Below, in pieces: positions 1 to 5,098 of a stretch of 5,824 nt of DNA. How positions within the stretch are numbered: position 1 is the first letter of the stretch; the number at the start of each line of letters is the position of its first letter. The stretch is from a virus (Duplodnaviria; Heunggongvirae; Uroviricota; Caudoviricetes): the IMG/VR virus record IMGVR_UViG_2711768049_000003. One strand, given 5' to 3'. The translations under genes and the position numbers were made by a program. Below the pieces are notes generated by a model that made no database searches, was not told the DNA's origin, and saw only the letters and a program-made list of their open reading frames with translations.

Positions 1-3000
1 TCTTCTGTCCGGTTGCTGATTCAGCTTGAGCGTAGCGGGCACTGGGTGACAGAGAAGGATATCACCATTAACGGTAAGACCACCTCGCAGTACCTGACGT
101 CGGTGATAATCGGTAACCTCCCTGAGCGTCCCTTTAATATCCGGATAGTCAGGGAGACGGCGGACAGTACCACGGACCAGCTGCAGAACAGAACGCTCTG
201 GTCGTCATACACCGAAATCATCGATGTGAAACAGAGCTACCCGAACACAGCCATAGTGGGGCTGCAGGTGGATGCGGAGCAGTTCGGTGGGCAGCAGATG
301 GCGGTGAACTACCATATCCGCGGGCGCATCATCCAGGTGCCGTCAAACTATGACCCGGAAAAACGTACATACAGCGGTATCTGGGACGGGACTCTGAAAC
401 CGGCATACAGCAACAACCCGGCCTGGTGTCTGTGGGATATGCTGACGCATCCACGTTATGGTATGGGAAAGCGCCTCGGGGCCGCGGATGTGGACAAGTG
501 GGCGCTCTATGCCCTCGGACAGTACTGTGACCAGCCGGTTCCGGATGGCTTTGGTGGTACAGAACCCCGTATGACCTTTAATGCGTACCTGTCACAACAG
601 CGTAAGGCGTGGGACGTGCTGGGGGATTTCTGCTCTGCAATGCGCTGTATGCCGGTATGGAACGGACAGACGCTGACGTTTGTTCAGGACAGACCATCGG
701 ATGTTGTCTGGACTTATACCGCCGGTAATGTGGTGACGGGGGAGGATGGGGTAAGTTTTCATTACAGCTTCAGTGCCCTCAAGGACAGACACACGGCAGT
801 TGAGGTGAATTACACCGATCCGCAGAATGGCTGGCAGACATCGACTGAACTGGTGGAGGATCCGGATGCCATACTGCGCTACGGACGCAATCTTCTGAAG
901 ATGGATGCGTTCGGCTGTACCAGCCGTGGTCAGGCTCACCGGGCAGGCCTGTGGGTGATAAAGACCGAACTGCTGGAAACACAGACAGTGGATTTCAGTG
1001 TGGGGGCGGAGGGACTGCGTCACACGCCGGGCGATATCATTGAAATCAGTGATAATGCGTATGCCGGTACCGTGATCGGCGGGCGGATCCTGTCCGTCGA
1101 CAACGCCAGCCGGACCCTGACGCTTGACCGTGAAGTCACTCTCCCGGAAAAGGGCACATCCACGGTGAATCTGATAAACGGCAGTGGTAAGCCGGTGAGT
1201 GTGGATGTTACCGGGCAGCCATCACCTGACAGGATACAGATCAGCACACTGCCTGACGGGGTGGTGGAACACAGTATCTGGGGGCTGGCATTGCCGGGAC
1301 TGCGCCGCCGTCTGTTTCGGTGTGTGGCGATCCGCGAAAATGCGGACGGTACCTTCGCCATCACGGCGGTGCAGCATGTGCCGGAGAAGGAGGCCATCGT
1401 GGATAATGGTGCCACCTTTGAGCCGTTGTCCGGTTCGCTGAACAGTGTCACACCTCCGGCAGTACAGCATCTCACGGTGGAGGTAAGCGCGTCTGACGGT
1501 CAGTATCTGGCGGCGGCGAAATGGGACACGCCGAGGGTGGTGAAGGGCGTGCGCTTCAGTCTGCGCCTGACCAGCGGAACCGGTGAAAACAGCCGTCTGG
1601 TGACCAGCGCCATCACCGCCGACACGGAGCACCGTTTCAGTGGCCTGCCGCTGGGGGAATACACCCTGACGGTCAGGGCGATAAACAGCTATGGCCAGCT
1701 GGGGGAGCCTGCCACCACCACGTTCCGGATTAACGCACCGGCAGCACCTGCCACCATTGAACTGACCCCCGGCTATTTCCAGATAACAGCAGTGCCGCGT
1801 CTTGCGTTGTATGATCCGACGGTACAGTTTGAATTCTGGTTCTCAGAAAAACGCATCACGAACACGGCACAGGTGGAAACGTCCGCCCGTTATCTGGGGA
1901 CCGGCAGCCAGTGGAGCGTCTCCGGCTCGCACATTAAGCCAGGGACAGATTTCTGGTTTTATGTGCGCAGCGTCAACCTGGTGGGTAAATCCGTTTTTGT
2001 TGAAGCAACCGGACGGGCGAGCAATGATGCGGAAGGTTATCTGGACTTTTTCAAAGGAGAAATCGGGAAGACACATCTGGCACAGGGGATGTGGGAGCTG
2101 ATTGATAACAGTCAGCTTGATGATGAGATGGCGGAGATGAAGACCACCATCACAGAAACCCGCAATGAAATCACACAGACGGTCAATAAAATCCTGGAAG
2201 ACCAGAGTGTCACCATACAGCAGATACAGCGTGTGCAGAAGGAGACGGATGACAGCCTGAGCGCACTGTACATGCTGAAGGTGCAGAAAACGAAAAACGG
2301 TATTCCGTATGTTGCTGGTATTGGTGCGGGGATTGAGGATGTTGATGGCCAGACCCTGAGCAATATTCTGCTGCAGGCTGACCGTATCGCGATGATTAAC
2401 CCGGAGAACGGCAACACCACGCCGCTGTTTGTGGCGCAGGGGAATCAGTTGTTCATGAACGACGTATTCCTGAAGCGGTTGTTTGCGGTGAGCATCACCT
2501 CGTCCGGCAATCCCCCTGTGTTCTCCCTGACGCCGGAAGGCAGGCTGACGGCCCGTAATGCGGATATCAGCGGAAATATTAATGCGAACTCTGGCACGCT
2601 CAATAATGTGACCATTAACCAGAACTGCCGGATTCTGGGAAAACTGTCTGCAAACCAGATTGAAGGTGACCTGGTCAAAACAGTGGGGAAAGCTTTCCCA
2701 CGGAATAACAGTTATGCCAGTGGCACTATAACGGTCACCGTTTATGATGACCAGGGCTTCGACAGGCAGATCATCATTCCACCGGTACTGTTCCGGGGGG
2801 CGAGACATGAGCACCAGTCCAGCAAAGATCACACTTCAACATGGTATTCCACGTGTCAGTTACAGGTGCAGATGAACGGAAGGGTAATTTTTCATGAGCC
2901 GGCAACGGATGTCACCCGGGTGTTTTCGTCCGTCATTGATATGCCGGCAGGACGGGGTCATGTGACCCTGACGTTTAATGTGTGGTCGAACGGGGTGAAC

Positions 3001-3081
3001 CACTGGACGCCGACAACATACATCAGTGATTTACTGGTTGTGGTCATGAAAAAATCCACGGCGGGTATCAGTATTTCGTGA
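1..3081 (+). CDS. J: Lambda J-like central tail fibre / host-specificity protein, 5'-truncated by the window edge (C-terminal ~1027 codons present)
   Basis: Reading frame is open from nt 1 with no stop until TGA at 3079-3081; the listed ORF 13..3081 begins at an internal TTG, so the real start lies upstream of the window. The translation reads like lambda J-family proteins from memory, with fibronectin-III-like beta-rich repeats in the middle (e.g. [27 protein letters not shown]...[28 protein letters not shown]) and a distinct C-terminal ~250-aa domain. Position directly upstream of a side tail fibre gene fits lambdoid synteny. Confidence 0.88.
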
Positions 3082-3278
3082 ACATGATGACCGGAATTGC
3101 CGGAAGGATATAAAACCGTACAGTATGCGCGGGTGCCTTTGGCTGATGGCCGGAGGGAACACCTGAAGGCCTGATGTGAAAAGGCCCCGAGTCAACTTCA
3201 ATGTTAACCCGAGGCCCTGAACCGTCTACCTTAAGCAAGTGGCAGGTTAGCGCCTCTCCGTAATAAGGAGCAAGTTCT

Positions 3279-3389
3279 GTGTCGCAAAAACCGTTAAAAA
3301 CCACCGTGATTTGTATCACGGTAGTGCTCATTATCTGGATCACCCACAGTTCACTGTGTGAATTCCGGTTCCGGATAGCACCTTTTTAA
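3279..3389 (+). CDS. Candidate small membrane peptide (36 aa), Hok/Gef-family-like type I toxin, possibly C-terminally shortened
   Basis: GTG start at 3279 lies 8 nt after a consensus Shine-Dalgarno AAGGAG (3265-3270). Translation is (M)SQKPLKTTVICITVVLIIWITHSSLCEFRFRIAPF, stop TAA at 3387-3389. It has a ~15-residue hydrophobic core followed by a polar/charged L-C-E-x-R-x-R motif, resembling Hok/Gef as recalled (Gef ...VICITAVVAALVTRKDLCEVHIR...). It is too short for the ORF track and about 10 residues shorter than canonical Hok proteins. Confidence 0.4.
   Translation: MSQKPLKTTVICITVVLIIWITHSSLCEFRFRIAPF
3284..3322 (-). terminator. Possible minus-strand hairpin plus T-tract (candidate antisense-RNA terminator or mRNA structure)
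   Basis: Perfect 8-bp inverted repeat ACCGTGAT (3303-3310) / ATCACGGT (3315-3322) with a 4-nt loop. On the minus strand the stem is followed by GGTTTTTAACGGTTTTT (complement of + 3284-3302). No flanking minus-strand gene is evident, so function is uncertain. Confidence 0.22.
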
Positions 3390-3410
3390 TCCTGTAAACC
3401 ACGATTTTTA

Positions 3411-3444
3411 CCGCAGACCGGGAAACCGGCACTGCGGTTTTTTT
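3411..3444 (+). terminator. Rho-independent terminator (hairpin plus T7 tract) at the end of the J-stf intergenic insert
   Basis: CCGCAG (3411-3416) pairs with CTGCGG (3432-3437), with an inner CCGG/CCGG extension, and is followed immediately by TTTTTTT (3438-3444). It sits 22 nt after the small ORF stop and 13 nt before the stf ATG. Confidence 0.7.
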
Positions 3445-3457
3445 ATGGGGAAAATCT

Positions 3458-4864
3458 ATGGCAGTCAGAATATCGGGTGTGCTGAAGGACGGCGCGGGGA
3501 AGCCGGTACCGGGATGCACAATAGAACTGAAAGCGCGACGCACCACAGAAACGGTGATTGTCACTACGGTGGCATACGGGCAGCCGGGGGAGACAGGCAG
3601 CTACAGTATGGATGTTGAACCGGGGCTGTACCGTGTGACCCTGAACACAGAAGGGCGTATGCCGTCATACGTCGGTGACATTCTGGTGAAGGCGGACTCT
3701 GCACCGGGAACACTGAATAAATTCCTGATGGACTTTGAGGATGCGCCATATTATCCGAAAGCCCTCGCTGAGCTGGAAGCGGTGGCTGCGGAAATACTGA
3801 AGCGTGCTGAAGCCTCCGCAGCCAGTGCAGAGGAGGCCAAAAAACGGGCAGAGAATGCCAGGGGGCCGAAGGGTGATAAAGGTGACCCGGGACCGCAGGG
3901 GGTACAGGGACCGAAAGGTGAGACAGGTGCAACCGGGCCACAGGGTGAGCGTGGTGCAACAGGGGCACAGGGTGTTCCGGGCCCCAAAGGGGATACCGGA
4001 GCCACAGGACCTGAGGGTAAAGCCGGTCCTGTGGGACCAAAAGGTGACAGGGGGGACACAGGGCCCAGAGGTGAACGGGGTGAAAAGGGAGAGAAAGGAG
4101 ATCCGGGTGGCCCTCCAGGGCCAAAGGGAGATCCGGGACCACAGGGGCCTGCCGGGCCTCAGGGAAAATCAGGCAGCCTTGAAGATATTACAGACAGGGA
4201 AGCTTTCATCCGTGAGCTTGGTGTGCCCAGAGCATACGGGCGTGACATTTCAACCGGAGCAGGTGAGTGGACGACAGAAGAGTTTGTTGCCTGGCTGAAA
4301 GAGCAGGGGGCATTTGACCATACCTGCTGGATAATGAAGGCATCACTGCCAGCGGCGATGAATAAGGCCATCACTGATGTCGGACCGGGGAAACTCAATC
4401 TGGGCGGCTGTACCATTGAAGTGATGGGAACATATGACGCCGCCATTGTACGGGTCACCATTGGTGAATACGGTGCAACGGGGTTTATTAATGGCACGGT
4501 CTGTACCTGTACGGTTTATGGCGATACCCGGAAATACCACTGGCGGGTGGATTACGGTACCAGGAATAAACCCACGACGGCGAGTCTGGCTGTCAATGGC
4601 TGGGAACGTGATGAGGCTACCGGACGGATGCGACAATGGGGTACGCTTGTGATAAGTGAATCCGATGGTCAGGCGTTATCACTGCACTCCATCCGTTTTC
4701 CGGTGGTTTTTCCTTCAGCAGTGCTGAATGTTCAGGTTTCTCCGGTGGGGGAGCCCGGGAAAATTCCTGGATACACTCTGTCCTCACCGTCATTGCAGTC
4801 GGTGACACTGAGGACTGTCAGAGGAACCTCCGGTAAGTTTTTCTGGGAAGCGACCGGATACTGA
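3458..4864 (+). CDS. stf: Side tail fibre protein with lambda Stf-like N-terminal domain, central collagen-like Gly-X-Y tract and a distinct C-terminal (putative receptor-binding) domain
   Basis: ATG at 3458 preceded by GGGGA (3447-3451). The N-terminus [28 protein letters not shown]... closely resembles the lambda Stf N-terminus as recalled ([26 protein letters not shown]). An Ala/Glu-rich helical segment is followed by 34 Gly-X-Y triplets (aa 136-239), then a ~230-aa Gly-poor C-terminal domain. Stop TGA at 4862-4864. Confidence 0.9.
3863..4177 (+). repeat. Collagen-like Gly-X-Y coding repeat (27 uninterrupted triplets, a one-residue register break at GG, then 7 more)
   Basis: Translation G136-S240 of the stf ORF reads [104 protein letters not shown]. 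The DNA shows the matching GGN-rich 9-bp periodicity, which also produces the spurious minus-strand ORFs here. Confidence 0.9.
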
Positions 4865-4873
4865 GGAGGGATT

Positions 4874-5098
4874 ATGGAGCGTTATATTTTTTCACCGTCC
4901 GCGAATATGTTTTATCCGGCCTCCCTGCGTGCCGTTTACGAGACTACCGGAAACTGGCCTGTGGATGGTATAGAGGTGGACTATGCCGTGTATAAAGTTT
5001 TTGCAGCGGATGCTGCACCGGCGGGCATGAAGCGGGGAGTCGGTACGGAAAAAATGCCGGTCTGGGTGCCGGTATCGGAAGAGGGCACGGGAAAATGA
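4874..5098 (+). CDS. Small protein (74 aa) resembling the N-terminal domain of phage tail fibre assembly (Tfa) proteins
   Basis: Very strong Shine-Dalgarno GAGGAGGG (4863-4870) overlapping the stf stop, ATG at 4874. The translation MERYIFSPSANMFYPASLRAVYETTGNWPVDGIEVDYAVYKVF...AP.GMKRGVG...PVWV fits the conserved N-terminal pattern of Tfa proteins as recalled (FYPA-L---Y---G-WP-DG--V ... P-GK-R-G ... P-W). Its stop TGA (5096-5098) overlaps the next ATG in an ATGA junction. Confidence 0.75.
   Translation: MERYIFSPSANMFYPASLRAVYETTGNWPVDGIEVDYAVYKVFAADAAPAGMKRGVGTEKMPVWVPVSEEGTGK

Follow-up and report, generated by a model that had tools for sequence, protein, structure and literature searches.

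The gap between the tail genes J and stf in the DNA analyzed here contains, in all likelihood, a type I toxin-antitoxin cassette of the hok/sok type that is decaying in this prophage lineage; hok/sok cassettes are a known class of prophage moron. The whole 5,824-nucleotide stretch, hereafter the window, was matched at 100% identity by a prophage of E. coli M1, M3, and M18. The genes that surround the gap, and the gap itself, are located as follows.

13-3081, plus strand: the 3′ 3 kb of the tail-tip gene J, with Pfam J domains
3082-3457: the J-stf gap, 376 bp
3458-4864, plus strand: the tail-fibre gene stf, with a prophage tail fibre N-terminal domain, collagen-like repeats, and a gp53-like C-terminus
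Plus strand of the window: two small tail-fibre-assembly-like genes

An earlier description of this DNA, made from its letters without database searches (the sequence-only reading), had presented the gap as a 376-bp interval that has no lom-sized open reading frame (ORF), is more AT-rich than its flanks, and contains a small ORF with a strong ribosome-binding site (RBS) followed by an intrinsic terminator. The dimensions were accurate: J ends at 3081, stf begins at 3458, and the longest plus-strand ORF between them has 36 codons. The difference in base composition was found as described (GC content 0.492 in the gap, 0.554 in J, and 0.569 in stf), but the last 500 bp of J have a GC content of only 0.502 and the AT bias of the gap is therefore modest. 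The small ORF, its Shine-Dalgarno (SD) sequence, and the terminator were all recovered at the positions listed below. When both strands were considered, the maximum ORF length in the gap was 91 codons; this ORF, at 3068-3343 on the minus strand, runs antisense to the cassette.

3265-3270, plus strand: hok SD sequence AAGGAG, 8 nt upstream of the GTG start, read from the sequence
3279-3389, plus strand: truncated hok ORF with a GTG start, 36 aa made up of 34 native Hok residues and a terminal Pro-Phe before the stop
3411-3444, plus strand: intrinsic terminator CCGCAG...CUGCGG plus U7, with the hairpin at 3411-3437 and T7 at 3438-3444, directly upstream of the stf RBS

A consensus scan of positions 2900-3600 returned neither a promoter nor a terminator. 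The terminator was missed by the simple pattern scanner because its stem is interrupted, and it was recovered by folding (ΔG −22.3 kcal/mol, z = −4.75 compared with shuffled sequences). A remnant of lom in the gap was ruled out, the hok cassette and the terminator filling nearly all of it.

The product of the small ORF belongs to the Hok/Gef family according to Pfam, PHROG 251, and its RefSeq name. It scored 27.8 bits against Pfam HOK_GEF (PF01848; gathering cut-off 22), a match that covers only profile positions 8-30 of 42, while an intact 46-aa relative scored 43.5 bits over positions 8-42. It also matched PHROG 251, "MokW-like host killing" (E = 3.7e-14), which PHROGs places in the category moron, and gave weak matches to the NCBIfam Hok models. 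RefSeq labels the identical locus in M1, M3, and CI5 "Hok/Gef family protein", and its calls for this same sequence are inconsistent: 27 aa, 36 aa, or "hypothetical protein". Since the HOK_GEF score is above the cut-off and homologues of the segment occur in hundreds of phage and E. coli records, the small ORF is not a product of chance. Among 121 related viral-contig sequences the Hok ORF is almost always 46 aa long, and the variant closest to the window Hok is MSQKPLKTTVICITVVLIIWITHSSLCEFRFRIAGAEIAAFLQCKQ. The window ORF starts with GTG, as compared to ATG in most relatives, and its SD sequence is predicted to be paired with an adjacent CUCC in a small hairpin, as seen in minimum free energy (MFE) folds for the window and intact relatives alike.

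The window copy differs from the 46-aa form by a deletion, which was called by alignment with loci at the same site (L002, L003, and L140) that are intact across the segment in question.

3371-3380, no strand assigned: deletion junction CCGGATA/GCA, 103 bp lost, break at 3377/3378

In intact loci the deleted segment sits between the direct repeats CCGGATAGC and CCGGATGGC, which are 9-bp imperfect repeats of the form CCGGAT(A/G)GC. With it went Hok residues 35-46 (GAEIAAFLQCKQ, among them the second conserved Cys), the stop codon, and a GC-rich 3′ hairpin in which relatives differ by compensatory changes. The 5′ half of fbi, through which the 3′ end of the mRNA pairs with the 5′ end, was lost as well, and only GCACC is left of this element. 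The remaining ORF falls short of a full-length toxin, which would have about 46-52 aa, a periplasmic C-terminal part, and the second conserved Cys. The transmembrane helix at the N-terminus and the first Cys (Cys27) were retained, and type I toxins of fewer than 36 aa exist, so that some toxicity may persist. The lost tail, GAE(F/I)AAFLQCKQ, is nevertheless the most conserved part of the Hok subfamily. In the hok gene of plasmid R1, 18 of the 20 premature stops that can be reached by a single substitution abolish toxicity, and C-terminal extensions abolish it as well (PMC9841398). The toxic domain has been proposed to be the C-terminal periplasmic part of Gef/HokC (PMC8509063). On the strength of these published observations, of the loss of the conserved tail, and of the decay seen in sister alleles, we infer that the window Hok stub would be non-toxic. 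The GTG start is a different matter: changes from AUG to GUG were not recovered among loss-of-function mutations of R1 hok (PMC9841398), and by itself it is therefore probably not disabling.

The same observations bear on whether the truncated cassette might still be a working toxin-antitoxin pair, its 36-aa peptide being membrane-toxic and the loss of fbi leaving the mRNA constantly accessible to Sok. The retained transmembrane segment and Cys27, the strong SD, the R1 result on GUG starts, and the occurrence of the allele in seven genomes would agree with such a pair. Even so we hold it to be rather unlikely in view of the effects of premature stops and C-terminal alterations on R1 Hok, the conservation of the lost tail in the subfamily, and the frameshift and insertion lesions that sister alleles gather in hok. 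The reading of a decaying hok/sok cassette, which we prefer, was then followed into the RNA features of the locus.

3097-3124, plus strand: predicted hok promoter, −35 TTGCCG at 3097-3102, 16-nt spacer, −10 TACAGT at 3119-3124, deduced from conservation
3131-3382, plus strand: hok mRNA remnant, from the predicted +1 GGGUGCC... (tac end) to the fbi remnant GCACC at 3378-3382; it aligns with 51 intact loci

The hexamers of the predicted hok promoter are conserved in the family as TTGCC(G/C) and TAnAnT, with counted spacers of 16 nt in the window and 17 nt in L002, and the −10 TACAGT lies 6 nt upstream of the predicted +1 (3131). This promoter and the Sok promoter described below are both weak compared to the consensus, and both were identified through conservation only. 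The sequence-only reading had put forward TATAAA at 3109-3114 as a weak promoter candidate. This motif falls within the spacer between TTGCCG and TACAGT, is specific to a clade, and is not conserved in the closest intact relatives; it was abandoned.

The leader was recognized by Rfam model RF01794, which matched positions 3131-3292 on the plus strand over its full length (1-157) with 34.9 bits (E = 3.9e-6). This score does not reach the gathering score of 59, and the window leader is a real but divergent relative of RF01794. Although the model is named "sok", its consensus ends in AUG and its 5′ end resembles that of the hokW sense strand, as read from the deletion primers in PMC8621323. These two features indicate that the model represents a hok leader, and a match on the plus strand is what is expected for a hok locus.

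A defining property of hok mRNAs, the long-range tac/fbi pairing between the 5′ and 3′ ends, was compared in MFE folds by scoring pairs between the first 25 and the last 35 nucleotides. All of the 51 intact family mRNAs formed at least 15 bp, and in L002 and L004 the helix was about 20 bp long. The window mRNA formed no end pairs, whether it was ended at the fbi remnant or at the terminator, and its 5′ end folded on itself instead. Folds of individual sequences were used for this comparison because RNAalifold on the 51 loci produced only a partial consensus, MAFFT having misaligned the indel-rich 5′ and 3′ ends.

The complementary strand of the leader carries the features expected of an antitoxin gene.

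3244-3273, minus strand: predicted Sok promoter, −35 TTGCTC (3273 to 3268), 18-nt spacer, −10 TAACCT (3249 to 3244)
3178-3237, minus strand: predicted Sok RNA of about 60 nt, with an unstructured 5′ tail of about 19 nt, a hairpin (3218 to 3181), and a U-run; the RNA ends are deduced
3211-3256, plus strand: predicted Sok-target hairpin GAGGCC...GCCUC, with the conserved loop CUUAAGCAA containing a YUNR-type CUUA

The spacer of the Sok promoter is 17 or 18 nt in intact loci (L002 and L004, counted by hand). The 15-mer AGGTTAGCGCCTCTC, which contains the Sok −10, was identical in the first four aligned loci; it was also the exact search pattern that retrieved the family, and its invariance is thus not independent evidence of conservation. 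The exact scan of viral contigs with this 15-mer supplied the family loci, while that of genome contigs yielded only chance matches in unrelated phyla. The Sok −10 aligns with that of sokW (GGTTAG/CTAACC), as deduced from primers YO-421 and YO-597, and mutation of the sokW −10 abolished antitoxin activity (PMC8621323).

The hairpin in the predicted Sok RNA (3218 to 3181) has 16 bp, with ΔG −26.1 kcal/mol and z = −5.2. In 31 out of 31 distinct family variants the minus strand was predicted to fold better than the plus strand (mean −23.2 compared to −14.3 kcal/mol). This predicted advantage is due to G·U pairs and is a signature of an RNA made from the antisense strand. Each variant combined an unstructured 5′ tail of about 19 nt with the hairpin, which is the architecture of Sok. 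The tail is complementary to the leader hairpin at 3211-3256, where the stem varies among relatives with its pairing kept (UUUCGAU/AUUGAAG, UUCUUC/GAAGAA, and CUAC/GUGG in the alignment) and the loop CUUAAGCAA is conserved. At the sequence level only, then, a cis-antisense Sok gene with its own promoter and terminator is present in the hok leader. Since promoter, body, and terminator are all unchanged in the window, Sok is probably still made.

The leader also contains a short ORF to which the sequence-only reading had drawn attention as a possible leader or coupling ORF by analogy with mok.

3201-3263, plus strand: 20-codon ORF (MLTRGPEPSTLSKWQVSASP), with its stop 1 nt before the SD

This passing analogy indicated the correct family. 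The ORF itself is present in the window as described, but its frame stops after 10 codons in L002 and L003, and its ATG is absent from 933W-like and other loci. A search in all frames of the 51 family loci found no conserved mok. About half of these loci lack any ATG, GTG, or TTG ORF reaching the hok start region, and the closest intact relatives of the window have no such ORF. An overlapping mok that would couple hok translation to the Sok target was not found; this is a property of the whole subfamily, while the lack of a full-length toxin and of tac/fbi pairing in the window results from the deletion.

The leader ORF could also be taken as part of a novel moron, in which an unknown small protein would be coupled to these 20 codons and transcribed from a promoter around TATAAA (3109-3114). 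The position of the ORF, which stops 1 nt before the SD, and the arrangement ATGACC-N16-TATAAA, a possible promoter as read from the sequence, would fit this idea. We consider it very improbable because neither the leader ORF nor TATAAA extends beyond this clade to the closest intact relatives, because TTGCCG/TACAGT is the promoter that is conserved, and because the protein is Hok; by the latter identification (Pfam HOK_GEF and PHROG 251), a moron coding for an unknown small protein was ruled out.

In R1, hok is coupled to mok and Sok acts by blocking mok; as the subfamily has no conserved mok, this mechanism cannot be carried over unchanged to the decaying hok/sok cassette. The hok SD lies about 28 nt downstream of the end of the predicted Sok target. 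If the subfamily does work without mok, Sok would have to promote decay by RNase III or, like IstR-1 on tisB, block a ribosome standby site, and not a coupled leader ORF.

The distribution of the deletion allele was determined in 5,426 complete E. coli genomes. An identical junction was found in seven of them: M1, M3, M18, CI5, A39, LZSFT34, and NCTC9112. Several of these and related alleles carried further lesions. In hok codons 4-7 of LZSFT34, NCTC9112, and the viral contig L234, a further 10 bp are deleted, which shifts the frame. The A39 locus has unrelated sequence, with a partial "integrase core domain" pseudogene, in place of everything upstream of the hok start. L140, whose 3′ part is intact, has a 20-bp deletion in the leader. 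The lesions in the sister alleles are the pattern expected for a hok gene that is no longer under selection. The persistence of the allele in seven genomes from different hosts could mean that it is tolerated or that it is useful.

One such use would be that of an orphan antitoxin: Sok would be kept to neutralize hok mRNAs of the same subfamily from co-resident or incoming prophages, providing anti-addiction or cross-immunity. Sok has kept its promoter, body, and terminator without change in the window, CI5, LZSFT34, NCTC9112, and L234, the last three of which have their secondary lesions in the hok coding sequence, and genomes carrying this DNA have a median of two copies; all of this would suit such a function. 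The alleles, however, are about 98-100% identical, and by chance alone Sok would be expected to be intact in them; A39 has lost the whole Sok region; and the Sok tails vary among subfamily variants, which limits cross-pairing. We regard the orphan antitoxin as quite unlikely. A broader proposal combines it with the lack of mok: the Hok subfamily, which is common in lambdoid prophages and has 46 aa with the tail GAE(F/I)AAFLQCKQ, would work without mok, and the toxin-dead allele of the window would act as an orphan Sok that neutralizes related prophage hok loci. This proposal is speculative and was given a low probability.

The decaying hok/sok cassette could also be delimited as a mobile unit by comparing the contexts in which it occurs. 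Homology across contexts extends from ATTGCC (3096) to GGCACC, which are the limits of the unit; this cassette, 3096-3382, accounts for 287 of the 376 bp of the gap. A 461-bp query comprising the end of J, the gap, and the start of stf, applied with at least 80% coverage, detected the J-hok-stf junction in at least 117 of the 5,426 complete E. coli genomes, as well as in phage 1720a-02. In Stx phages of the 933W/Sp5 type, the core of the cassette lies about 230 bp downstream of lom, and it recurs in further contexts. Conversely, an Ail/Lom gene with its own terminator occupies the J-stf slot in O157:H7 FRIK2533, where the C-terminus of J is homologous, and in JNEC-KY208, where the N-terminus of stf is homologous. 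The slot is thus a site at which cassettes, hok/sok or Ail/Lom, are swapped, which bears out the presence/absence polymorphism that the sequence-only reading had suggested looking for at this junction. Its notion that the unit replaces lom is valid for the J-stf slot but not in general, as the cassette sits beside lom in 933W-like phages.

Morons have been characterized by their insertion between neighboring genes, their own promoter and terminator, and a differing base composition (Juhala et al. 2000; Cumby et al. 2012, PMC3594210). Related phages do carry different cargo, hok/sok or Ail/Lom, between the same genes. As to independent expression, conserved promoter-like hexamers and a strong terminator were present, the consensus promoter scan having found none. 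All J-stf copies share the terminator at 3411-3444, which is absent from the same cassette elsewhere and is therefore a property of the slot and not of the mobile core. The claim of a moron-like autonomous unit was sound insofar as the cassette is self-contained, occurs in several contexts, and falls in the PHROGs category moron; what it describes is a known hok/sok and not a new element. This slot-specific terminator, which late transcription must traverse, would also agree with a gap that is a plain J-stf spacer with a terminator and no independent function. That explanation was refuted by the recurrence of the 3096-3382 cassette, with conserved coding and RNA features, in unrelated contexts, and we assign it next to no probability.

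These observations can be combined in a model of the decaying hok/sok cassette. In intact relatives, a σ70-type promoter (TTGCCG/TACAGT) would produce a hok mRNA of about 355 nt, whose first 20 or so nucleotides would pair with the last 20 or so (tac/fbi), and the mRNA would be closed and untranslated. A constitutive antisense promoter in the leader would provide Sok, about 60 nt long, and its free 5′ tail would meet the conserved target loop. By analogy with R1 hok/sok and hokW/sokW, the binding of Sok would block expression and expose the mRNA to RNase III, and the 46-aa membrane toxin Hok would be made when Sok drops. In the window, the 103-bp deletion leaves an mRNA that is predicted to lack the end-pairing helix and that encodes a 36-aa stub from GTG; the toxin would be inactive, and Sok would probably still be produced. 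The terminator at 3411-3444 would close the unit ahead of stf.

The element is of a kind that is already known and already annotated, here in a degenerate form, and the window cassette is probably inactive. For annotation, this means that the ORF should be described as a truncated, pseudogene-like Hok and that an entry is needed for the antisense Sok gene. In lambdoid prophages, the J-stf slot is confirmed as an accessory-cassette swap site (lom or hok/sok), and the set of alleles constitutes a small natural series of successive hok-inactivating lesions. Current understanding is unchanged, since prophage hok loci, their moron status, and chromosomal decay are all documented.

The closest point of reference is the hok/sok (parB) system of plasmid R1. 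The window locus shares with it a small hydrophobic Hok (HOK_GEF) and a leader matched by the Rfam model, and intact relatives share the 5′-3′ tac/fbi end pairing. Other likenesses are an antisense RNA gene located in the leader, whose product would have a single-stranded 5′ tail and then a long terminal hairpin, a Sok −35 that overlaps the hok SD region, and an SD sequestered in a hairpin. In contrast to the plasmid system, the window locus is chromosomal and prophage-borne, the intact Hok of the subfamily has 46 aa instead of the 52 aa of R1 Hok, hok has its own strong SD and no conserved overlapping mok, and the C-terminus of the window toxin and most of fbi are deleted. The decay also has a counterpart in E. 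coli K-12. Pedersen and Gerdes are said to have described, in 1999, K-12 hokA, hokC, hokD, and hokE as inactivated by deletions, IS insertions, and rearrangements, with some of the regulatory RNA remaining. The window allele series follows the same pattern, although the lesion in the window is a repeat-mediated 103-bp deletion and its location is the prophage J-stf slot.

The hokW/sokW system of the Stx2 phages Sp5/933W (Takada et al. 2021, PMC8621323) has a homologous Sok −10 (TAACC) and was likewise treated as an accessory gene of a lambdoid phage. HokW belongs to the same family but to a different subfamily (51 aa, MKQQKAM..., RelF/HokD-like) and is found at a different phage position. The homologue of the window cassette in 933W-like phages could be taken for hokW; this was ruled out because the primers of that paper correspond to a different subfamily (PMC8621323). 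That homologue is instead a second hok locus, downstream of lom, which is unannotated in many records. Published data on Hok toxicity and neutralization come from other Hok subfamilies (PMC8621323, PMC9841398). Among prophages in general, hok is enriched about fourfold (bioRxiv 10.1101/2025.08.07.668861), and a prophage hokD is among the highly expressed morons of strain LF82 (PMC9928086). Finally, the cassette resembles the lom moron of phage lambda, an accessory gene expressed in lysogens, in that it occupies the same J-stf slot and is self-contained, with its own terminator just before stf. The likeness is one of position and organization: lom encodes an Ail/Lom outer-membrane β-barrel that has no sequence relation to the cassette, no antisense RNA, and no toxin.

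A conserved mok, the leader ORF to which hok translation is coupled in the R1 hok/sok system, was not found in the Hok subfamily of the window when nucleotides 3131-3278 and the 51 related loci of alignment A2 were inspected. In about half of these 51 loci there is no ORF at all that extends to the start of hok. Furthermore, hok in this subfamily has a strong Shine-Dalgarno sequence of its own, and the predicted target of the antisense RNA Sok ends approximately 28 nt upstream of it. Taken together, these sequence features argue that the R1 coupling mechanism cannot apply, unchanged, to this subfamily.

One hok clade bears successive lesions (L249, L250, L234, L248, and L140). In strains LZSFT34 and NCTC9112 (L249 and L250) and in a viral contig (L234), a 10-bp frameshift deletion was added to the 103-bp deletion. 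Unrelated sequence with a partial integrase-core pseudogene takes the place of the leader and Sok region in strain A39 (L248), and the J-stf locus L140 has an independent 20-bp deletion in the leader while the 3′ part of the allele is intact.

The RefSeq annotation of the truncated hok (3279-3389 and 3306-3389) is inconsistent for the same sequence. It is a 27-amino acid protein starting at GTG 3306 in strain M1, a 36-amino acid protein in CI5, and a "hypothetical protein" in M18, LZSFT34, and NCTC9112. None of these entries carries a truncation flag, and no Sok RNA is annotated at these loci. An ORF antisense to the cassette is probably a by-product of its sequence:

3068-3343, minus strand, 91-codon ORF antisense to the hok cassette

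The genes that follow the cassette are:

3458-4864, stf tail fibre, with a collagen-like Gly-X-Y tract at roughly 3860-4160 (Pfam Collagen, 57.7 bits)
4874-5098, small gene of 74 amino acids
5098-5769, small gene overlapping the preceding one by ATGA

The collagen-like tract is preceded by a prophage tail-fibre N-terminal domain and followed by a C-terminal domain that is gp53-like. The first small gene has no Pfam match; the second matches DUF4376 and, weakly, a tail-fibre assembly domain. Outside the window, the strain M1 sequence (L001:1-135 and 8994-11372) includes an OmpC-family porin gene directly upstream of tail gene L and the right end of the prophage, which adjoins a truncated ykgJ-like gene and potBA. 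The porin gene and the ykgJ-like/potBA border may represent further cargo and the attachment region of this prophage.

The 933W/Sp5-like Stx phages carry an additional hok locus of the same subfamily as that of the window, directly downstream of lom:

L004:1669-1809 (phage vB_EcoP_phi346), second hok locus, at the equivalent position in 933W, VT2-Sakai, and many more Stx phages

Many GenBank records leave this locus unannotated or label it "hypothetical". Compared with the published hokW (MKQQKAM...), the lom-adjoining hok of the 933W/Sp5-like phages is a separate locus.
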